Below the pieces are notes generated by a model that saw nothing but the letters and a program-made list of their open reading frames with translations, did not search any database and was not told the origin of the DNA. Made by a program: the position numbers and the translations under genes. Positions 1 through 62,373 of a DNA stretch of 64,000 nucleotides are shown in pieces. Source of the DNA: Podarcis melisellensis (lineage: Eukaryota). How positions within the stretch are numbered: position 1 is the first letter of the stretch; every line of letters begins with the position of its first letter. Location: assembly GCA_964234715.1 (NCBI GenBank), contig OZ174277.1; one strand, written 5' to 3'.

Positions 1-107
1 TATGGAGGGGACCCCTTTCTTCTTACACACCTTGTTCCAGATTCTGTTTAGAATTTAATGGCATGTTGTTTTTCTCCTTGAACTACAGTGGTACTTTGGT
101 TACATAC

Positions 108-874
108 TGTCACGGCCACCCAGGTCTGGTCCCAGCTCACAAGAGACCTCACTCCGTTGCAGCTTATTTACAGGAAAAGTTTATTGAAGATTTCTGCTTC
201 TCATACAGTTCAGCATTGTGGCCGTACGTCTGCCACGTTAGACCGCTGAAGTCCCCTCTGACTCCTCCCCTCTTCCGCACCAACTTAATAGCCTGGCTCT
301 AGACCACCTCTTCCTCTCCTTTCTTTTCCGCAGGGTCTTCCTGCCCCCCTGGGTTCCCTCTCTCCGTGACTCGCCTGAGGCTGAATCCTCTGCCGCCTCT
401 TCCCCCCTCTTTCTGGCTTTAGGGCCGGGCTCCTCCCCTGAGCTCTCTCCACTTCCGCGCGCCTCTACGTTTGAACTTGGCGCGCGTACGTTGCTGCTGA
501 CCTTTTTTTCGACCGCTACACCACCCCCTGCTCTGCTCTCCACCCTTTCCGGCTGAACACCCTGCTCCAACCCCCTCTCTCTGTTCTCTCCTAATCCTGC
601 TCCCTCCGAGAGGCTGACGACTCCACCCCCTTTACTCCGTTCCGGCTGAGACGTCTCTTGCTTCCTCTGTCTTCCACTGGGCTCCTCTCCGCTTCTCCCT
701 TCTCCTCCCCTTTGCTTGATTAAGGTAACCCCCTTTTGAGAATCCTCTGACTCGCTGCTCAGACTCGTGGATTCCCTCAGAATTCCGTCATCTTCTTCCT
801 CATCCTTCTGCCCCTCCTCCCACTCGCTCTCCGTCTCCTCTGTCATCTCCTCCTCTCTCCCAGAAACCCTGACA
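108..874 (-). repeat. 3' LTR
   Basis: Direct repeat of 5835-6601, preceded on the minus strand by a polypurine tract. Confidence 0.97.
180..185 (-). terminator. LTR polyadenylation signal AATAAA
   Basis: tttatt on the plus strand, in the 3' LTR downstream of the predicted R start (259) and the pol stop (238). Confidence 0.75.
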
Positions 875-3800
875 TCCATCCCCCCCTCGAAGCCCCCCCT
901 TCCCCCCTCCCGCTCGCCGGGGACCGGTTGTGGAAACTGCGGCTCTTCGGGGGTAGGCTCAGGATACAGGTCGTCTACGTCAATGTTCTCTGCTGGCAGT
1001 TCTGTGTAAGTGTATTCGAAGTCGGGTTCTTCCCCCAAATGCTTCTCAGTCTCTGCTTCCATCGCTACTTCCTCCGGTGCTGCCCGCCAAGGACCTATCA
1101 GCCACCTCTTACGCCATTCCTCCTCTGGCTGCTCCTCCCACCAATAAGGGGTTTCCGTGTCCACCCCCGAGCACGATCCCCTGGGCGGGCTTGATTCTGG
1201 TGTTCTTTCCTCGGGGGAAGAGAAACCCCTGAACGTGCTATCTGACAATGTGGGTGTGAAAAGCCAGTCATCAAAGTACTCAGCTGGCATGGGTCTATGT
1301 GGGAAAAGTGCATGGAACTCTTCTTTCAAAAGGGGTTCGTCTAAGTCGTAGCCTGGCACCCAACTATTAGCAGCGGCTGGTGTGCCCTCCCTGGCGAGAA
1401 AATATTCAACTCCCTCCTCCCCCCATCTCGAGTCCAGTATCTCTGTGACCTCGTTAAGAGGTTCTGGTCTTGGCGATTCCCCCCTCTCAGGCGCCCTCCT
1501 ACGTGGCTCTGGGGGTGCTCCTGACTCTTGAAACCTGTGTGGGGTTTTGTAGGGAGTGAGCACCGACCTATGAAAGACCGGGTGCACCCTGGAACCTTCC
1601 GGAAGGGCTATACGAAAAGCCACCGGATTGATCTTAGCCTCAACTTGATATGGCCCTAGCTGCCTGTGTCCTAACTTCTTCTTGGCCAATGACCTGGCCG
1701 GCATCGCGTGGGCTGCTAACCACACCCAGTCCCCAACCTGGATGTCCTCTCCCGCCCTCCTGTGCTTATCGGCCTGCACCTTATACGCCTGTTTTGCCAG
1801 CTCCAAATGTCTCCGCAGCTCCTCGTGCACCTCTTGCAACTCCGCTGCAAACTGGTCGGCATCTTGAGGCCCCCCCCCTCCTGGTGCCGCAAATCTCGGG
1901 AAGGTTCTGGGATGACGGCCATTGTTCGCGAAGAAAGGCGTCACCCCGGTGGAAGCGTGTTTCGTGTTGTTGTAGGCGAATTCAGCCATCGGCAGATAGT
2001 CCACCCACGCCGCAGGTCGCTGGTTGGCGTAGCACCGCAGGTACTGCTGCATGATCGCGTTGACCCTCTCCGCTTGACCGTTGGTTTGTGGATGCCTCGC
2101 CGATGTCAGGTTGATTTTGACGTGCAAGATGCCCAGAAGCTTTCGCCAGAAAGTGGAAACAAACTGGCGCCCCCTGTCGGACAAGACGGACTGCGGAAGT
2201 CCATGCACTCTGAAGACGTGATCGATGAAGAGCTTTGCGGTCTGTTCTGCCGTCGCCACCTTGGCACAAGGGATGAAGTGCGCCATCTTGGTGAACAAGT
2301 CCACCACCACTAACACCGCCGTCTTACCTCTGGAGCTGGGCAGGTCTGTAACAAAGTCCAACGCTACCCTCTCCCATGGTTGCTGCGGTGTCTCCAGCGG
2401 TTCTAGCAATCCCGCCTGCTTCTGGTGCACTGGTTTGGACCTCTGGCAGATATCACACCTGGCGACGTAGTCCGCCACCTCTCCTCTCATCTGGGGCCAC
2501 CAAAAGTCTCTAGCCACCAACTCCATCGTCTTTTCTTTGCCGAAATGGCCTGCACTAGGGGCGTCATGCAACTGTTGCAGAACCTTGGCTCGAAGATCGT
2601 CGGTGGGCACGTAAAGGGCACCCTTACGAGTCAAAAGTCCATCTTGTAATTGAAACTCATCGTTGTGTCGCGACCCTCCGCGTAGCTCCTCCATCTTAGA
2701 CTGTGCAAACTGATCCCTTTGCAACGCGCGTCGCACCGCGTCCAGGTCGACTGCGATGGTAGCGCACGTCCACGCCTGCGGTGCGAAAATGTGCTTTGCT
2801 GCGATTGGAGCTGCTTCCTCCAAGTATTGCGGCTTTCGGGACAGCGCGTCTGCAATAACATTGGAGTCTCCTGGGATGTATTCTATTTTGAAGTCGAAGT
2901 CCGCAAAGAACTCCGCCCAGCGCATGTGTCGCTGGGTCTGCAACTTAGCCGTCCGCCAATACTCTAAGTTCTTGTGATCCGTGCGGACCTGCACCGTGTG
3001 CTTGGCTCCTATTAAGAAGTGTCGCCACGCTTTGAAAGCTGCATGAATGGCCAACAACTCCCTGTCCCATATGGTATAATTGCGCTCCGTCTTGCTGAGC
3101 TTCCGGGAGTAGAACGCACCCGGTCGCCAGTTGCCTTGTGAATCCTCTTGCAAAAGAACGGCCCCAACCGCTCTATCCGACGCATCGGTCTCTACCCGCA
3201 TGGGTCTGCCGGGATTCACGTGGAGCAGCTGCTCTTCGGAGGCGAAAAGACCCTTAAGCGTCCGGAAGGACCGCTCCGCTTGTTCGGTCCAGACGAACTT
3301 CTTCTTCTTGGAACTGAGGGTGTCAGTGATCGCCGCCGTCGCGTTCGCAAAACCTTTAATAAACTTGCGGTAAAAATTGGCAAAGCCGATGAACCTCTGG
3401 ACCTCTTTCCGATTTCGAGGGCTTTTCCAGTCCAACAGCGCTTGAACCTTAGCCCTGTCCATGGCCAGTCCCTCGTCGGACAACTTGTAGCCAAGGAAAT
3501 CAACCTCTCTGACATCAAACTGGCACTTTTCCAACTTGGCGTACAGCCTGTGGTCCTTCAGCCTCTGCAGGACCTCCCTCACGTCCTTATCGTGATCCTC
3601 CGGCGATTCCGAGAAAATCAGGATATCGTCGAGAAAGCAGACACACTTTTTGTAGAGGAGACCTGCTAGCACGTGGTGCATAAATGCTTGAAAAACGTGG
3701 CTGCCATTTTGGAGGCCGAAAGGCATGACTCTGTATTCGTATGTGCCCAGAGGGGTGAACATGGCGGTCTTCCACTCATCTCCTTTCCGGATGCGGATGA

Positions 3801-4758
3801 GATTGTAAGCTCCACGTAGGTCCAGCTTGGTGAAAATCTTGCCCCTCCTGACGGTCGCTAAAAGGTCGTCAATCTTGGGCATGGGGAAAGCTTTGGGCTT
3901 AGTCAAGCTGTTGATGAACCTGTAATCCACTATAAGCCTTTTTTGGGGCGTGTCCTTCTTCTTCACAAAGAAAACAGGGCTGCCTCCCGCTGCTTTAGAT
4001 TCCTGGATGAAACCGCGCTTGAGGTTATGGTCTATGAACTCCCGAAGCTCTTGCATTTCGTCCTCCGACATGGAGTACAGCTTGGCAGCAGGCAATTGCG
4101 CCCCTGGCACTAAATCAATCGCGCAGTCGTAAGGTCTATGAGGCGGCAACTTGTCAGCTTCCTTCTCACAGAAAACCTCCAAGAAGTCCTGGTACTTGTG
4201 AGGCACTGTTTGCACCATACCCAGATGCAATGGCTGCTCAGCTTCTCCTCCCTGATCGGTCTGAAAGCAATGCTGAGCACAATACGATGAACAAAAGTTG
4301 ATCTGCCTCTGGTACCACGCAACCGCGGGACTGTGCCTCTCCAGCCAACTCATGCCTAACACGATGGGTGTGTCCGATAAGTGGGTGACATTGAAACTAA
4401 TAAGCTCTCGATGGTTGCCAATCTGCATCATCATGGGAGGGGTTTGCTGCACCACTTGCCCCCCCAGCAACTTCCTGCCGTCCACCGTGACCACGTTCAG
4501 AGGCGTCGTTGCAGGCAGGAGCGCCATGTTGTGCTGCTTAACGAACTGCAGTCCCATGAAGTCGGCGTTGCTTCCCGAATCGATCGTTATTGGAACCTCG
4601 AGGAGTCTCCCATCAGGCAACTGGAGTGTTGCTGTGAGCAGAACTGCCGGTTTGGGAGGCAAAGGGTCCACGCTCTGCAGTGATGCTGGGGGCTTGTCTA
4701 CAGATCCGCCTGGCTGAGCCCCAGTAGCTCTGCTTCCAGCCAGGCACTGTCGTTTCCC
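238..4758 (-). CDS. pol: Pol polyprotein (protease, RT, RNase H, integrase, degenerate chromodomain, ~350-aa acidic/basic tail), expressed as Gag-Pol by -1 frameshift
   Basis: Open frame 238..4836, in the -1 frame relative to gag. Motifs: IDSGS (protease); LDLRGAYNLIRI, MPFGLQN and FLDD (RT); TDASD, RELLAI and TDHKNL (RNase H); HHCC, LDFVTD, SDRG and NGQAER (integrase); GPY/F and HPVFH; EVTEILDSR (chromodomain). Confidence 0.96.
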   Translation of the reverse strand, partial: GKRQCLAGSRATGAQPGGSVDKPPASLQSVDPLPPKPAVLLTATLQLPDGRLLEVPITIDSGSNADFMGLQFVKQHNMALLPATTPLNVVTVDGRKLLGGQVVQQTPPMMMQIGNHRELISFNVTHLSDTPIVLGMSWLERHSPAVAWYQRQINFCSSYCAQHCFQTDQGGEAEQPLHLGMVQTVPHKYQDFLEVFCEKEADKLPPHRPYDCAIDLVPGAQLPAAKLYSMSEDEMQELREFIDHNLKRGFIQESKAAGGSPVFFVKKKDTPQKRLIVDYRFINSLTKPKAFPMPKIDDLLATVRRGKIFTKLDLRGAYNLIRIRKGDEWKTAMFTPLGTYEYRVMPFGLQNGSHVFQAFMHHVLAGLLYKKCVCFLDDILIFSESPEDHDKDVREVLQRLKDHRLYAKLEKCQFDVREVDFLGYKLSDEGLAMDRAKVQALLDWKSPRNRKEVQRFIGFANFYRKFIKGFANATAAITDTLSSKKKKFVWTEQAERSFRTLKGLFASEEQLLHVNPGRPMRVETDASDRAVGAVLLQEDSQGNWRPGAFYSRKLSKTERNYTIWDRELLAIHAAFKAWRHFLIGAKHTVQVRTDHKNLEYWRTAKLQTQRHMRWAEFFADFDFKIEYIPGDSNVIADALSRKPQYLEEAAPIAAKHIFAPQAWTCATIAVDLDAVRRALQRDQFAQSKMEELRGGSRHNDEFQLQDGLLTRKGALYVPTDDLRAKVLQQLHDAPSAGHFGKEKTMELVARDFWWPQMRGEVADYVARCDICQRSKPVHQKQAGLLEPLETPQQPWERVALDFVTDLPSSRGKTAVLVVVDLFTKMAHFIPCAKVATAEQTAKLFIDHVFRVHGLPQSVLSDRGRQFVSTFWRKLLGILHVKINLTSARHPQTNGQAERVNAIMQQYLRCYANQRPAAWVDYLPMAEFAYNNTKHASTGVTPFFANNGRHPRTFPRFAAPGGGGPQDADQFAAELQEVHEELRRHLELAKQAYKVQADKHRRAGEDIQVGDWVWLAAHAMPARSLAKKKLGHRQLGPYQVEAKINPVAFRIALPEGSRVHPVFHRSVLTPYKTPHRFQESGAPPEPRRRAPERGESPRPEPLNEVTEILDSRWGEEGVEYFLAREGTPAAANSWVPGYDLDEPLLKEEFHALFPHRPMPAEYFDDWLFTPTLSDSTFRGFSSPEERTPESSPPRGSCSGVDTETPYWWEEQPEEEWRKRWLIGPWRAAPEEVAMEAETEKHLGEEPDFEYTYTELPAENIDVDDLYPEPTPEEPQFPQPVPGEREGGRGGFEGGMDVRVSGREEEMTEETESEWEEGQKDEEEDDGILRESTSLSSESEDSQKGVTLIKQRGGEGRSGEEPSGRQRKQETSQPERSKGGGVVSLSEGAGLGENRERGLEQGVQPERVESRAGGGVAVEKKVSSNVRAPSSNVEARGSGESSGEEPGPKARKRGEEAAEDSASGESRREGTQGGRKTLRKRKERKRWSRARLLSWCGRGEESEGTSAV
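875..911 (-). other. Polypurine tract
   Basis: GGGAGGGGGAAGGGGGGG..GAGGGGGGGATGGA immediately upstream of the 3' LTR on the minus strand. Confidence 0.9.
4686..4758 (-). other. -1 programmed ribosomal frameshift signal: G GGA AAC slippery site plus H-type pseudoknot
   Basis: GGGAAAC at 4758-4752 in the gag frame, then a 6-nt spacer. Stem 1 is GCCTGGCTG/CAGCCAGGC (4745-4737 with 4716-4708). Stem 2 is CTGGGGCT/AGCCCCCAG (4724-4717 with 4694-4686). Confidence 0.88.
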
Positions 4759-5774
4759 TGAAGCTGCTCCCCTGGTTGCACCTCTGCTGTTACAGTTGCC
4801 AGCGCTGCAGTGTGCTTCTGGAGCCTCTGGGGGCACTCTTTCGCCATATGGTGCGCACTGTCACAGATGTAACACTTCCTGGTTCCTCTAGGAGGCTTCG
4901 CTTTGGCTGCACCAGGGACAGGGCTCTGGGATGGCTTCTGAGCCCTAGCACCACCAATCTCCATTGGCTCCTCTCTGTCCTTCCCCATTGGCGAGGGGTG
5001 CGCACGGCTGAAGTCCCTGTGCCCAAAAGGGAGAGTCCTTGCTTGCGCACGCGCTTGGGGCCCGTCCTCCTCATGCCACGGACGCCCCTCATGTCGAATT
5101 CCAAGAGCTAAAGCCCGTTGCACCACGTCTTCTAGGGTCTGGGGTCTGTCCCCCCTAGCGATCTCATCCTTGATGGGGGGGCTCAATCCCTCCCAAAAAA
5201 GATCTCTGACCGGTTTACTGTCCTTTGGCCAATCTAAGGCGGTGAGCAATGCAAAAAATTTAGAGTGGTATTGGCGCACAGTCGCTTTCCCCTGCCTCAG
5301 CCCGTGCATTTGACGGCGCGCAATGTCCACATCCACAGAGGATTGAAAACAAGAATCCATCGCTTTGATGAACGCAGTTGAATCGCGACGGGCCGGTCCA
5401 TCTTCGCGCCACAAATTGCGTAGCCAAGCCCTGGCCTCCCCATGCAGGTGCGAAACAATGAACCCCACTCTCTCCTCCTCATCTTTAAAATCGTGACGGA
5501 GTAAGTGCAGTGCATATACAACGTCCGCTCTGAAATTGGGATAGTCTTGCAAGTTGCCATTAAAATGCGGAACTAGGGCACCCCCCCTCCGTCCAAGCGC
5601 AATGCCCTCCGCTCTGGATCCTGGGGCCCCCGCCTTGTCCGCGCGCTCCCACCTTGCCTGCAAATCCTGGCACGTCTTCTCCAAGTCGTCATTCTTCTTC
5701 TGCGAAGCAATGACTGCCGATGTGAGAGCGGTAACCTGATTCCGCAATGCAACCAGCTGCTCCTCAGCGCTCAT
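4698..5774 (-). CDS. gag: Gag (358 aa): N-terminal coiled coil, retrotransposon capsid, EEPMEIG motif, CCHC zinc knuckle
   Basis: The ORF track gives 4698..5879, but the first in-frame ATG is at 5774 in a good Kozak context (gcagccATGa, MSAEEQLV). Contains CYICDSAHHMAKEC (CX2CX4HX4C), LRQGKATVRQY and EEPMEIG, as in sushi/PEG10-type Gag. Confidence 0.95.
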   Translation of the reverse strand: MSAEEQLVALRNQVTALTSAVIASQKKNDDLEKTCQDLQARWERADKAGAPGSRAEGIALGRRGGALVPHFNGNLQDYPNFRADVVYALHLLRHDFKDEEERVGFIVSHLHGEARAWLRNLWREDGPARRDSTAFIKAMDSCFQSSVDVDIARRQMHGLRQGKATVRQYHSKFFALLTALDWPKDSKPVRDLFWEGLSPPIKDEIARGDRPQTLEDVVQRALALGIRHEGRPWHEEDGPQARAQARTLPFGHRDFSRAHPSPMGKDREEPMEIGGARAQKPSQSPVPGAAKAKPPRGTRKCYICDSAHHMAKECPQRLQKHTAALATVTAEVQPGEQLQGNDSAWLEAELLGLSQADL

Positions 5775-5821: not shown

Positions 5822-5832
5822 AGAGGGGACTT
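5822..5832 (-). other. Primer-binding site, self-priming type (AAGTCCCCTCT)
   Basis: Starts 2 nt from the 5' LTR and lacks the TGG start of a tRNA PBS. It is perfectly complementary to AGAGGGGACTT at 5986-5976 in the LTR. Confidence 0.88.
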
Positions 5833-5834
5833 AC

Positions 5835-6601
5835 TGTCACGGCCACCCAGGTCTGGTCCCAGCTCACAAGAGACCTCACTCCGTTGCAGCTTATTTACAG
5901 GAAAAGTTTATTGAAGATTTCTGCTTCTCATACAGTTCAGCATTGTGGCCGTACGTCTGCCACGTTAGACCGCTGAAGTCCCCTCTGACTCCTCCCCTCT
6001 TCCGCACCAACTTAATAGCCTGGCTCTAGACCACCTCTTCCTCTCCTTTCTTTTCCGCAGGGTCTTCCTGCCCCCCTGGGTTCCCTCTCTCCGTGACTCG
6101 CCTGAGGCTGAATCCTCTGCCGCCTCTTCCCCCCTCTTTCTGGCTTTAGGGCCGGGCTCCTCCCCTGAGCTCTCTCCACTTCCGCGCGCCTCTACGTTTG
6201 AACTTGGCGCGCGTACGTTGCTGCTGACCTTTTTTTCGACCGCTACACCACCCCCTGCTCTGCTCTCCACCCTTTCCGGCTGAACACCCTGCTCCAACCC
6301 CCTCTCTCTGTTCTCTCCTAATCCTGCTCCCTCCGAGAGGCTGACGACTCCACCCCCTTTACTCCGTTCCGGCTGAGACGTCTCTTGCTTCCTCTGTCTT
6401 CCACTGGGCTCCTCTCCGCTTCTCCCTTCTCCTCCCCTTTGCTTGATTAAGGTAACCCCCTTTTGAGAATCCTCTGACTCGCTGCTCAGACTCGTGGATT
6501 CCCTCAGAATTCCGTCATCTTCTTCCTCATCCTTCTGCCCCTCCTCCCACTCGCTCTCCGTCTCCTCTGTCATCTCCTCCTCTCTCCCAGAAACCCTGAC
6601 A
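5835..6601 (-). repeat. 5' LTR (U3 ~6601-5987, R/U5 ~5986-5835)
   Basis: Direct repeat of 108-874 at offset 5727 with no differences seen by eye; upstream of gag on the minus strand. Confidence 0.97.
6012..6017 (-). promoter_or_regulatory. LTR TATA-like box (TATTAA); predicted TSS ~5986
   Basis: TATTAA lies 26 nt upstream of the 11-mer that pairs with the PBS; the same motif is at 285-290 in the 3' LTR. Confidence 0.7.
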
Positions 6602-6825
6602 CATACGCTTCAGGTTACACACTCCACTAAGCCAGAAATAGTGCTTCAGGTTAAGAACTTTGCTTCAGGATAAGAACAAAAATCGGGCTCCTGCGGCGCG
6701 GCAACCGCAGGAGGCCCCATTAGCTAAAGTGGTGCTTCAGGTTAAGAACAGTTTCAGATTAATAATGGACCTCCGGAACGAATTAAGTACTTAACCCGAG
6801 GTACCACTGTACCTACATTTAGAGA

Positions 6826-7605: not shown

Positions 7606-9899
7606 CTGAGTTACAGCTGCTAACAGAGATAGATTGGGGGAGCACGACTGGTTTGGCCACACTGGGCCTTGAGCCAAGAGTGCCGCAGGGGGTGCTGCAA
7701 CAATGACAAAGAACAGAAGGCTAGAGGTGGGGGGAGGCACTGAATTTTGCGTTGCACAGGATGCTGCTGAAATTTTAAGACCCAAAGTCTGCCGCTGTTG
7801 CTATGATCCCAGGTGCCACACCATGTAAGCATGGGAGCAGCATTATGGTTTGTGCCAGGGTTGCATCATGTAAGATGCGTAATGATAACAAACAAAAATG
7901 GTGCTTGGATCCTTGCAACATAGCAAGTGCAGCAGATATTTCATATGATGTGAAAACTGAAAGGTTGAATTGTGCTAGAAACATGTTCCTAGGTCAAGCG
8001 TTTTCAGGTTTGAATACATGCTGGCATCACGTCTTCCAAGGGGGAAATGGCCAATGCTTCTTTGACACAGCATGCCTTTCTGTGGGGGCAAAAGGAGGCT
8101 TTATTTCACCCAGGTCAAAGATCCAGTTTGGCACCCCCCCAAGTACTTTTGTGTACACACACACATAGGCTGGGAGCCTCAATGGTGCCCCTCTGGAGGC
8201 TTCACCCAGGGCAAAAAACCCGACTAGTCCCCTATGGCTCTGCTTTCTGCATTCTTCATTTCTTCTTAAGAGTATTGCAAATGGTGGACTGGGGCTTCCT
8301 TTATGACAGGCAGCCTCTTCTTTCCTCTCTGTCTCCTTTTCTGTTTTATTTTCTCTTTGGCTAAATGCGCTGCTTGTCATTTGGGTCGGCTTTCGGGTAT
8401 CGTTTTATAAACCGTATACGGCGTCTTCATAAAACGTGTTTACTTTTGGTGTACAATGCATGCATTACAAGTAGGGCATTGTAATTTACAAGGGGGGCAG
8501 TTTGCCTTCCAAGTCTCTACGTGGGGGCATGTGCCAAGTACAGCTGGTTGAAGCATAATTGGCAATCCAAGCTGTACTGCTTCGTTGTTAATACAGTGAT
8601 TGCAGCTTGCTTAAAAGGTAACCAAGCTTGGGCATGAAAATACTTCTGGCTGAAACAGTATGAGACAAAACAGAGAATCAGGACTTCCTTATGACTTAGC
8701 AATTGCCAGGTTGTGCCATCACAACTGCTGGTGTAGGGGACTGAATGCCGGATTGCTTCCTTATATTATATACTTCCTTCACAAACAAAACTAGTATGCC
8801 AGGGAGATGTCTCTCAGCAAGCCTTTTGATTGATAAGCTAGTTTCTTATGCGGAAGTGTTTTGTATAGGGGAATAGTTAACATGTTGATTCTTCCCTTCC
8901 CTGCTTAAGTCTGAAAACAGCACAGCCCTGCAACAGATCCATCACATCAAATGTTTCTTTTGCTGCTCTGTTCATCAGATTTCGTAAGCATCACAGATGG
9001 ACGTTAATTCTACGGTAGGATGCCACCCTTCCTTTCATATTCTGCAGAACTGTAAGATCTCATCCCATTAATCAGTCTAAGAGCTCACTTTCACTCTTGC
9101 ATAAAACAGTAGGCAAAGAGCAATTTCATGTCAAAACAAGGCATGACTCTGTTCTTGTTTAATAGATTTGCCTAATATGGTCCCCTTGACGAATGTCTGC
9201 TTCTGCACGTATATCACTTCTTGACTGCACTTGACTGCAAGAAACATTGTTTGCAAAGAGATATTATTTGGGTCTACACTGTAATGTTCTTCAATTGTTT
9301 CCCCTCCTTCATGGAATAAATCCACCATAGGCTAGGTTTGGTCTGTACATTTCTTCTAGCACTTTATAGAAAACAAACTTCACCAAGTTAAAACTCTCAG
9401 CAAGGGCAACTTCTAGTGCTACTTGTTGAGACATAGATTTTGACTCTCCTGCCTTTTAAGATTCTTAGCAAAAGGTTAAAGGTGTAATAAGGTGAGTGAA
9501 AATGATGTAGAAAAATACATTGTATTAGGCAAAATTCATTTGCCGAAAATTGTATATTTAATGCCAAAATAGCATTAAAATGTGTATATTGTGAGGAATT
9601 CACACTAAAATGCAGATAAGGACTTTTTGAAATTGCAAACTAATGTGGAGAACTGAACTTAAAATGGGGAAAAATAAGAAACTGAAAGAAAGCATAATTG
9701 ACAGATCTGCCCATTCCTAAATATGTGCCAGTTGACAGATATCTATCAGGCCCATCTGTATGTAAAATTGACAGAAAACTGACTATTCCCCAAGGCATGG
9801 ATTTTAAATATCATGGGGGAAAACATCTAAGAATGTTCTAATCACACAGACTGAAAATTAAAATAGAAAAGGAATTAAAGTTTTGCTATGTTCCCCCAG

Positions 9900-10353
9900 T
9901 TAAAGCTATGGTTTTCCCAGTAGTGATGTATGGAAGTGAGAGCTGGACCATAAAGAAGGCTGATCGCCGAAGAATTGATGCTTTTGAATTATGGTGCTGG
10001 AGGAGACTCTTGAGAGTCCCATGGACTGCAAGAAGATCAAACCTCTCCATACTGAAGGAAATCAACCCTGAGTGCTCACTGGAAGGACAGATTGTGAAGC
10101 TGAGGCTCCAGTACTTTGGCCACCTCATGAGAAGAGAAGACTCCCTGGAGAAGACCCTGATGTTGGGAAAGATGGAGGGCACAAGGAGAAGGGGACGGCA
10201 GAGGACGAGATGGTTGGATAGTGTTTTCGAGGTTACCAGCATGAGTTTGACCAAACTGCGGGAGGCAGTGGAGGACAGAGGTGCCTGGCGTTCTCTGGTC
10301 CATGGGGTCACGAAGAGTCGGACACGACTAAACGACTAAACAACAACAACAAC
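9900..10353 (+). mobile_element. BovB (RTE-clade LINE), 5'-truncated
   Basis: ORF MVFPVVMYGSESWTIKKADRRRIDAFELWCWRRLL...KSRTRLND, a (CAA)n tail, and TSD ATGTTCCCCCAG at 9888-9899 and 10354-10365. Confidence 0.93.
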
Positions 10354-36479: not shown

Positions 36480-37100
36480 CAACAAAGCATAAACAAAAAC
36501 AATACAACAAAGAAAAATGTTTCCTTTCAAAGATTTAAAAGAATCAACAAAAAAACTGAAAACATTCCTTGACTTCCTATCCTCTCTTTCCATGGTTCCT
36601 TTCAACCCCTCTCTTCCTTGTGTCTTTTTAGTTCACCCCATCTATTGCAACCACTTTTATATACTTTATTTATTTCTTACTCTGCTGAAAATGTTACTAT
36701 CCTGCTAGGTAAATTGTTTGCTTATACAGTGGTACCTCGGGTTACATACGCTTCAGGTTACATACGCTTCAGGTTACAAACTCCGCTAACCCAGAAATAG
36801 TACCTCGGGTTAAGAACTTAGCTTCAGGGTGATAACAGAAATCCTGCGGTGGCGGCATGGCGGCAGCAGTGGGAGGCCCCATTAGCTAAAGTGGTACCTC
36901 AGGTTAAGATCAGTTTCAGGTTAAGAATGGACCTCCAGAACGAAGTAAGTTCTTAACCCGAGGTACCACTGTAATAATTTTCTATATATTCTATAAATAG
37001 TATCTAGTCCTCGTTACATCTTTCATCATTTTGGTTTCTTATTCTAGCGGTCATTTCTGCTAACTCTGCATATTCTAACAGTTTAATATGCCAGTTGTTT
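36480..37100 (-). mobile_element. L1-clade 3' end (interrupted by the MITE at 36727-36971)
   Basis: The minus strand at 36975-37095 translates WHIKLLEYAELAEMTARIRN.., homologous to the 15473-16077 copy. Confidence 0.7.
36727..36971 (+). mobile_element. Tigger/pogo-like MITE
   Basis: TIR cagtggtacctcgggtta / taacccgaggtaccactg with TA TSD. Confidence 0.92.
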
Positions 37101-43585: not shown

Positions 43586-44019
43586 TGATGTATAGACGTG
43601 AGAGCAGGATCATAAAGAAGGCTGATCGCTGAAGAATTGATGCTTTTGAATTATGGTGCTGGAGGAGGCTCCTGAGAGTCCCATGGACTGCAAGAAGATC
43701 AAACCTATCTATTCCTAAGGAAATCAGCCCTGAGTGCTCACTGGAAGGACAAATTCTGAAGCTGAGGCTCCAATACTTTGGCCACCTCATGAGAAAAGAA
43801 GACTCCCTGGAAAAGACCCTGCTGCTGGGAAAGATTGAGGGCACAAGGAGAAGGGGACGACAGAGGAGGAGACGGTTGGACAGTGTTCTCGAAGCTACCA
43901 GCATGAGTTTGACCAAACTGCGGGAGGCAGTGGAAGACAGGAGTGCCTGGTGCGCTCTGGTCCATGGGGTCATGAAGAGTCGGACACGACTAAACGACTA
44001 AACAACAACAACAACAACA
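43586..44019 (+). mobile_element. BovB 3' fragment nested in a hAT-like MITE (43509-44048)
   Basis: Highly similar to 9900-10353; (CAA)n tail; MITE halves on both sides. Confidence 0.9.
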
Positions 44020-49900: not shown

Positions 49901-50405
49901 GGGAGAGAGAAGTGTGACTTTATGGTGTTTAGGAATGTGGGTCCCCCCCTTAAGAATGTGTGCTAATGGATAACAGGATAGAAGCATACAGTGCTTCTGG
50001 AAACAATTATTAGAAGAATTCTGAAAAAGGCTTGGAAGCAAGGGCATTCTTCATCGCTGATATCTCTAAAGCAGAGGAAATTGTGGCCCTTCAGATGTTA
50101 TGGGACTCCCATCATCCCTGACCTTTCGCTATGCTGGTTGGGAATGATGGGACTAGAAAATAGAGTCATAGAATTATAGAGATGGAATATAACAGGATTT
50201 ATTTCTGAGTAAACATGCACAGGTTTGCACTGCACGCACCTTGCTACTAATGACCAGACAATCAAAGATTAAGGTGTACCGGCATTTCGCCACACATGTC
50301 TAGCATAACTTTAGTCACTTGCCCATCAGTCAATTCAAATAACAAGATTCCAAAGGATCATTTGGGGGTATGTGTGTGGAACTGAGTTCTGATGCTTTTG
50401 CAGTA

Positions 50406-50619
50406 CAGTGGTACCTCGGCTTAAGTACTTAATTCATTCCAGAGGTCCGTTCTTAACCTGAAGTACCACTTTAGCTACTGGGGTTTCCTGCTGCCGCCGC
50501 GCGATTTCTGTTCTCATCCTGAAGTAAAGTCCTTAACCTAAGGTACTATTTCTGGGTTAGCGGAGTCTGTAACCTGAAGCATATGTAACCTGAAGCGTAT
50601 GTAACCCGAGGTACCACTG
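50406..50619 (-). mobile_element. Tigger/pogo-like MITE (opposite orientation)
   Basis: Same TIRs and TA TSD as 36727-36971. Confidence 0.92.
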
Positions 50620-50985
50620 TACTTATTCTGTGAATACTGTTCCCAAAGAGTATCATGGCCTAATGATCAGTGAACTGAACGTGATGCTGAAAGATCCAAT
50701 AGGATCGAGTAAGGTATAATGGTTATCTATAAGTGGAGGTGGTTGAAACCACAAATAGAGTTTAAAAATCACATGGCAAGTTGCAGAAAGTGATGCAATC
50801 AAAGCTGCATAGTAACACCTTAAATGCAGTGCTACATATTGTATTTGAAGCAGTTACATTGTGTAATGCACACTCATGGTTTAAAAGCAACAACAACAAG
50901 CTGAACCAAACTTTAAAACACAATTCTGAAAATACTGGGAAAGTCCAGGCAGAAAAAAACTCATGTCAACTGCCTTTTACTAGTA

Positions 50986-51228
50986 CAGTGGTACCTCTGG
51001 TTACGAACGATTCTGGTTACGAACGCTTCAGGTTACGAGCTCCACTAACCTGGAAGTAGATGCTCCTGGCTGCGAACTTTGCTCCCGGTTGTGAACTTTG
51101 CCCTAGCATGCAAACGGAAATCATGCGCTGAAGGCCCCATTAGCAAAAGCGCACCTCAGGATAAGAATGGTTTCAGCTTAAGAAAGGACCTCTGGAATGA
51201 ATGAAGTTCGTAACCAGAGGTACCACTG
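50986..51228 (+). mobile_element. Tigger/pogo-like MITE
   Basis: cagtggtacctctggttacgaac / gttcgtaaccagaggtaccactg with TA TSD. Confidence 0.9.
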
Positions 51229-51284
51229 TAACACGAAGAGGACAGATATGACTTCTCAGTTATGTAATAAAAGAGCAAGGTATG

Positions 51285-62080: not shown

Positions 62081-62373
62081 GTTGTTGTTTAGTCGTTTAG
62101 TCGTGTCCGACTCTTTGTGACCCCCATGGACCAGAGCACGCCAGGCACTCCTGTCTTCCACTGCCTTCCACAGTTTGGTCAGACTCATGCTGTAGCTTCG
62201 AGAACACTGTCTAACCATCTCATCCTCTGTCGTCCCCTTCTTCTTGTGCCCTCCATCTTTCCCAACATCAGGGTCTTTTCCAGGGAGTCTTCTCTTCTCA
62301 TGAGGTAGCCAAAGTATTGGAGCCTCAGCTTCAGGATCCGTCCTTCCAGTGAGCACTCAGGGTTTGTTCTTCA
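62081..62373 (-). mobile_element. BovB 3' fragment
   Basis: Reverse complement of the other BovB copies; TSD TGTTAGTACTT at 62070-62080 and 62374-62384. Confidence 0.9.

Follow-up and report, generated by a model that had tools for sequence, protein, structure and literature searches.

Does the U3 region of a vertebrate LTR retrotransposon encode protein, and what would such a protein do? The question is raised by a Ty3/gypsy element in a 64,000-nucleotide stretch of the Podarcis melisellensis genome (GCA_964234715.1, contig OZ174277.1), the whole of which we call the window. The pol frame of this element runs on past the chromodomain, through the polypurine tract (PPT) and into the 3′ LTR. 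The LTRs of vertebrate Ty3/gypsy elements are treated as non-coding. In named members of the Tf1/Sushi group pol normally ends before the PPT. Retroviral nef and MMTV sag do use U3 as both promoter and code, as separate genes on spliced RNAs, whereas the coding U3 of the lizard element is the uninterrupted end of pol.

The first 6.6 kb of the window are occupied by an intact, self-priming Ty3/gypsy chromovirus on the minus strand, to which all coordinates below refer. Its 3′ LTR (108..874) and 5′ LTR (5835..6601) are each 767 bp long, have TG...CA ends and match with 0 mismatches (874-108 against 6601-5835). A GTATG target-site duplication flanks the element (103..107, with the second copy at 6602-6606). 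These features, together with the PPT (875..888) and the order gag, then protease, reverse transcriptase (RT), RNase H and integrase, are those of Ty3/gypsy elements. Directly after the 5′ LTR, an 11-base stretch (5822..5832) is the complement of LTR bases 259-249, which is how members of the Tf1/Sushi group are described as priming themselves (PMC6317226). Gag (Ty3 capsid and zinc knuckle by Pfam, 358 amino acids, 4698..5774) overlaps pol (238..4860), and the overlap holds a candidate -1 frameshift heptamer, G GGA AAC (4752..4758). Pfam gives the domain order as gag, protease, RT, RNase H, integrase, SH3_Tf2-1 and a weak chromodomain, beyond which pol continues as a tail. The chromodomain (1312..1452) scores E 0.031 against Pfam Chromo in full pol, under the cut-off; its predicted fold is confident (pLDDT about 90) and it aligns at 35% to a canonical sister chromodomain. 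On the match and the predicted fold, the integrase carries a C-terminal chromodomain, as expected of a chromovirus.

The pol frame is free of stops over 1540 codons, stop to stop (4860-238). Past the chromodomain it stays open for 353 codons, from 1299 to the TAA at 240-238, of which 142 are internal and 211 (241..873) lie in the 3′ LTR. The frame crosses the PPT, the TG end of the LTR (874), a TATA-like TATTAAG (290-284) and the 11-base self-primer sequence (249..259), and stops 9 bases beyond the last of these; an AATAAA poly(A) signal (180..185) follows downstream. Recomputation thus reproduced both the length and the course of the extension put forward in the original prediction, which had also placed the stop in R. 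That placement would hold if the self-primer, as in Tf1, is taken as the start of the transcript. Shuffling that preserved dinucleotides, repeated 20,000 times, left the 633-base LTR part open in frame in 0.2% of cases and the tail as a whole in 0.005% (0.6% and 0.01% when any of the three frames was allowed), and the other two frames of the LTR part contain 8 and 5 stops. Open frames of 211 codons, which if common in shuffled LTRs would have undermined the prediction, are therefore rare. A Pfam search of the tail gave no domain match.

Exact copies of the PPT/LTR junction number 932 in the genome (1575 Mb). The 150 best-scored among 2084 candidates do not differ across 140 tail residues, and about 127 of those 150 (counted by eye) retain the 1540-codon frame. 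The window's family is very young. Since near-clonal copies are uninformative on selection, sister families were examined. Protein searches found Podarcis relatives with a like read-through at about 50% identity and, by chromodomain match alone, a distant short-LTR clade. Tail relatives were placed in Podarcis muralis and P. lilfordi; few squamate transposons are annotated as proteins, which makes this weak evidence on range. An Atlas search returned chromodomain clusters alone, all below 0.9. In four contig sets presumed to be RNA, from another organism, relatives appeared only as fragments, mostly less than 95% alike, and these sets were given no weight.

In the element's own genome 40 regions were fetched, mostly chosen for long open frames. 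A chromodomain hit was present in 39 and, of these, 30 read through to the conserved end. LTR length among the fetched elements varies from 365 to 784 bp, and the LTR is entered in one common phase. Five families have 615, 636, 609, 306 and 279 bases between LTR start and self-primer, in every case a multiple of three; the self-primer is not clear in the oldest copy (L160). A further sample was blind to the tail, its eight young copies having been ranked on nothing but their Pfam SH3 or Chromo score. All eight read past the PPT and TG; five belong to the short-LTR clade and three to a third, distant clade. In this third clade the last codons of the frame recur as same-strand pairs about 5 kb apart, which places the end of its frame inside the LTR. 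Early stops in relatives had been named as grounds for abandoning the coding reading, and nine of the 39 elements do stop early; several Podarcis proteins also shift frame in the G runs of the PPT, at differing places. Both look like the product of decay, or of slips in assembly, in individual copies. For two early-stopping old copies (L158 and L159) the decay reading is not demonstrable.

Codon models return an omega of 0.37 for the LTR part in 11 long-LTR copies and 0.40 in 17 short-LTR copies, most of them chosen for long open frames; the integrase end, for comparison, gives 0.12-0.14. An omega of 1 is rejected for the LTR part in both sets (twice the log-likelihood gain is 82 and 66, respectively). 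With the first 10 and last 35 codons removed, the LTR part still gives 0.41 (long-LTR) and 0.45 (short-LTR). The last 35 codons give 0.25, and 26 codons of the internal tail that bear an FxGF motif give 0.13-0.14, as low as the integrase end. Alternative frames yield 0.75-2.0 in 12 of 13 pairs.

Because the alignments behind the codon models were protein-guided, alignments were also made from DNA only, and nine of ten planned pairs gave results. Across these nine, substitutions at codon positions 1/2/3 number 150/153/281 in the LTR part against 62/68/78 after the stop; the pairs share sequences, so that a pooled p is overstated. Gaps in multiples of three make up 7 of 7 in the internal tail, 7 of 15 in U3 and 0 of 17 after the stop, and the non-triplet U3 gaps fall in divergent pairs. 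When the window is compared with four relatives, the third-position excess is found in three (p 0.0006-0.005) and is weak in the most distant (p 0.08), and 5 of 14 after-stop gaps are multiples of three. The frame conservation across U3 that the original prediction had called for is thus borne out, with omega at 0.37-0.40 and third-position excess before the stop only. U3 is kept as protein by purifying selection. Selection tests on the sister families, together with recurrence in three clades, support the original inference of a U3 that serves twice, as putative promoter and as protein code, and we are confident that the tail is a real, selected protein.

The tail had been described as acidic and Trp-containing at first and basic at its end, and so it is. 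That account missed two features, the loss of the chromodomain's aromatic cage and an FxGF motif, the tail's most conserved segment. The cage of a classical (Group I) chromodomain consists of Y24, W45 and Y48 (PMC3350952). Aligned to the canonical sister and HP1, the window's chromodomain has N, R and T at these three positions and lacks the cage that defines Group I. The short-LTR clade retains W only, and the third clade has all three aromatics.

The FxGF motif lies directly behind the chromodomain (1222..1284; omega 0.13) and consists of a short predicted helix, which in the window ends in F, a linker, there S/T-rich and 8 residues long, and FxGF itself. Alignment A3 has eight rows, two of them retrieved through the chromodomain alone, and every row shows a helix with a hydrophobic end, an acidic or S/T linker of 8-9 residues and FxGF. 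(A separate set of 27 motif rows was selected by the FxGF pattern, and its invariance is no test.) In the short-LTR clade the motif is doubled, the second copy lying 40-50 residues further out; in three of three Podarcis muralis short-LTR proteins and in a further copy (L305) the first motif is degraded to LxGF or MxGF, leaving the second as the sole intact one. The rest of the internal tail (875..1221) is acidic, dotted with aromatics and mostly predicted to be disordered, and its end crosses the PPT. The LTR-encoded codons are likewise predicted disordered. Tail pLDDT is mostly below 50; short helices are predicted after the chromodomain, around a Trp-rich patch and at the basic end, and apart from these the tail is predicted to be disordered.

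This arrangement resembles the TND-interacting motif (TIM), described as a short helix with F/V/L/I, an acidic or S/T linker of 8-16 residues and FxGF within a disordered region, the FxGF being specific for the H3K36me readers LEDGF and HRP2 (PMC9987994). The window's motif fits that description, with helix and disorder as predictions. The TIMs or IBD-binding motifs of JPO2, PogZ, MLL1, IWS1 and JIL-1 are alike in their hydrophobic-ending helix, 8-9-residue acidic or S/T linker, FxGF and disorder, and sometimes occur in two copies (PMC9987994, PMC8022399, bioRxiv 10.1101/624023). The lizard motif differs in sitting on a retrotransposon integrase, and the likeness is one of sequence. Several short-LTR motifs conform to the strict LEDGF consensus D/ExExFxGF as given in PMC8022399; the window's copy, with S-D-S-T before FxGF, has Ser in place of the acidic residues and would depart from that consensus unless phosphorylated. 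A profile of the 27 motifs run against the PDB did not retrieve the known TIM chains present there, and PDB searches with the motif segment and the motif profile gave weak chance matches only (Artemis, E 5.6; Numb peptide, E 0.37). Complex prediction for a 34-residue motif with the lizard LEDGF domain scored 0.00 in two runs, in which alignments were unused and the tool was one unproven on peptides, and the score counts neither for nor against binding. The host genome does encode LEDGF, one exon being identical to the Podarcis muralis protein. By analogy with the host motifs, the FxGF motif may bind LEDGF/HRP2, which we regard as quite possible though on balance doubtful.

At its other end, the tail of each clade closes in a basic block near the TATA region. 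In the window this block (277..339) contains an invariant W, overlaps the TATA-like box and is a candidate NLS or nucleosome anchor. HMGN proteins hold on to the acidic patch of the nucleosome through the core RRSARL (PMC12487698). The third clade ends its LTR-encoded tail in RRSARL in all three copies read, much as in the RRSARLSA of HMGN and Dsup (PMC12487698). The basic block of the window's family is only loosely similar: its RWSRARL is altered in close relatives, and the window's tail does not contain the HMGN-type RRSAR(L) core.

We propose that the tail is a chromatin-tethering arm. On what is known of LTR elements, the genomic RNA would begin at R in the 5′ LTR, end at the poly(A) site in the 3′ LTR and hence include the 3′ U3. 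Ribosomes that shift from gag to pol would translate this U3, and the product would be an integrase with a 353-residue arm. Reverse transcription would then copy the translated U3 into both LTRs, so that one sequence would serve as promoter and as code. The arm itself would be a string of short motifs that deliver the integration complex to the nucleus and to chromatin, standing in for the lost methyl-lysine cage of the chromodomain. Judged by likeness, the helix-linker-FxGF would bind a domain of the TFIIS-N-terminal type, most likely that of LEDGF/HRP2, and the basic end encoded in the LTR would serve nuclear import or hold on to the acidic patch of the nucleosome. Consistent with replacement of the cage, the two FxGF clades have lost two or three cage residues and the clade with an intact cage is without FxGF, a pattern that spans three clades only. 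An arm that replaces the cage through short motifs is the best explanation overall, and we lean towards it. That chromatin or nuclear targeting is the tail's main job we likewise consider somewhat probable. A broader scenario, in which lizard chromoviruses swapped direct reading of histone marks for mimicry of host motifs on a disordered arm encoded partly in the promoter, would have two clades lose the cage and gain, as the first retroelement integrases to do so, a TIM that binds LEDGF/HRP2 (HIV reaches this tether by a different interface), with a third clade carrying an HMGN-type anchor in U3; taken as a whole, this scenario is speculative and rather unlikely.

The tail could instead be translated and selected for nuclear import, solubility, particle assembly or anti-restriction, with the FxGF segment an extension of the chromodomain or a ligand of some other partner. 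The presence of a basic end in every clade fits this view, as does the position of the FxGF motif, which adjoins the chromodomain and has a first half predicted to be helical. The insertion sites point the same way. In GC, CpG, repeat share and strand skew, the flanks of 75 insertions on contig C1 are no different from those of 60 random sites, and absolute strand skew is 0.051 at insertions against 0.059 at random sites (one-sided p 0.83). The sample came from 80 fetched of 85 copies, three being dropped without an LTR end and two as too repetitive. Copies are about as dense on C1 (85 in 137 Mb) as in the genome overall (932 in 1575 Mb). In this flank proxy, which is indirect and draws on insertions already filtered by selection, there is no sign of a preference for gene bodies or transcribed DNA. 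Against a job other than targeting, the second motif of the short-LTR clade lies too far out (40-50 residues) to pack on the chromodomain in the same way, and the spacing and residues of the motif match a defined host motif. We consider this alternative possible but rather doubtful, and continue to prefer the tethering arm.

Alternatively the tail could be mostly filler, tolerated on a T-poor, purine-rich strand and kept free of stops to avoid the RNA decay that a long 3′ UTR attracts. T makes up 11% of U3 on the coding strand, the LTR-encoded length ranges from about 70 to 220 codons across families, and the middle 60 codons (the middle third) of the long U3 have an omega of 0.70, which is not different from 1. 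However, amino-acid changes are depleted 2.5- to 7-fold relative to silent ones in most windows, beyond what stop-avoidance alone gives, and specific aromatic residues are invariant among clades that are 30% identical. As an account of the tail filler is improbable, and where the FxGF segment and the two ends of U3 are concerned it is largely refuted. Composition as the sole cause, the caveat attached to the original prediction, is rejected by the shuffles, by the DNA-only contrast in codon positions and by omega. Least probable of all is one founder's accident spread by a recent burst, with promoter DNA and not protein conserved: the 150 best-scored of the 2084 matches are indeed identical in 140 tail residues and constraint at the DNA level does act on the PPT, LTR end, TATA and self-primer, but three clades share the layout, five U3 lengths are all in frame, third-position excess is confined to the region before the stop and selection remains after the cis elements are cut away, so that the selection tests reject it unless alignment bias far exceeds what the DNA-only control indicates.

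With a selected, tether-like tail as the preferred reading, the element can be placed among known systems. Comparison with nef and sag, which the original prediction had drawn, is incomplete, as the closest precedent is in plant chromoviruses. In all members of CRM group A the polyprotein frame reaches into the 3′ LTR, where a putative centromere-targeting CR motif is encoded, and in the beet elements Beetle7 and Bingo1-4/7 the frame likewise extends into the 3′ LTR (PMC3059260, PMC3605345). The frame thus crosses the PPT into the 3′ LTR there as it does here, and the layout of the lizard element is a variant of that of the plant CRM chromoviruses. CRM elements, as those sources describe them, are primed by tRNA-Met, have the CR motif instead of a chromodomain and gather at centromeres. 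The lizard element, in contrast, is vertebrate and dispersed, keeps a cage-less chromodomain and has a long, predicted disordered tail that reaches to the self-primer. Being self-primed, and having a chromodomain, it is not a CRM member. With the Tf1/Sushi group of fungi and vertebrates it shares domain order, SH3_Tf2-1 plus chromodomain, self-priming PBS, TGT...ACA ends and a 5-bp duplication (PMC3601003, PMC6317226). Searches of the openly accessible literature (including PMC3601003, PMC7264820, PMC10854676 and bioRxiv 10.1101/624023) turned up neither a coding U3 in sushi-type elements of vertebrates nor a retrotransposon that bears a TIM; subscription papers, Repbase entries and supplements may describe the long frame. 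What appears to be new is the predicted disordered tail, the loss of the cage in the window and the conserved, putative helix-linker-FxGF behind the chromodomain.

Lentiviral integrase uses LEDGF/HRP2, which would be the identical host tether at the identical step (PMC9987994). HIV integrase does so through a structurally prearranged site and not, as proposed here, an unstructured motif (PMC10854676). If the FxGF motif binds LEDGF, a retrotransposon would have reached the lentiviral tether by copying a short motif of the cell, and about a thousand young insertions in one genome would show the outcome. In several recently amplified families nearly the whole of U3 is under selection as protein, so that the reading frame constrains how their LTRs evolve. 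Each of the numerous solo LTRs carries a ready-made coding module, which host genes could acquire by splicing. The 5′ LTR of the window's element also contains the 211-codon frame, there upstream of the inferred transcript start.

The LTR part of L096, a copy from the same genome, is near-identical to that of the window element (dS 0.02), whereas the internal parts of the two tails, between chromodomain and LTR, are far apart (dS 0.55). This contrast suggests that subfamilies have recombined at the PPT/LTR border.

In the third chromovirus clade (L309:1-546, L310 and L311) the aromatic cage of the chromodomain is intact, and a single long frame of 1575-1625 codons continues for about 112-118 codons beyond the PPT. 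This frame ends in the HMGN-like RRSARL, with a TATA-like box directly downstream, and the frame-end stretch occurs in 210 exact copies, most of them as LTR pairs.

One LTR of the short-LTR clade, its frame open, lies within an intron (L161:2541-2915, minus strand); the adjoining exon matches the LEDGF family, and the host gene is likely that of HRP2. In P0153, a Podarcis muralis model of a phospholipid-transporting ATPase, the C-terminal ~45 residues are the last part of the short-LTR tail, an LTR frame being fused to a host gene model. This fusion could reflect either genuine exonisation or a slip in annotation.

Window-family insertions on contig C1 (L164-L243) show a target-site pattern just outside the 3' LTR: of 75 insertions, 74 have A or T eight bases past the LTR end, and 62 have one of these two bases at position seven. 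The window element itself is nested in a short interspersed repeat, which flanks it at 6602-6811 and 60-107; the same repeat recurs in the window at 36717-36973 and 50403-51230. Repeated-element fragments with an RT-like end lie at 9842-10339, 43586-43969 and 62122-62364, and these we take to be BovB-type LINE. Older copies from several families accumulate on a single contig, C19 (38.8 Mb), a build-up that would fit the expectation for a non-recombining sex chromosome.
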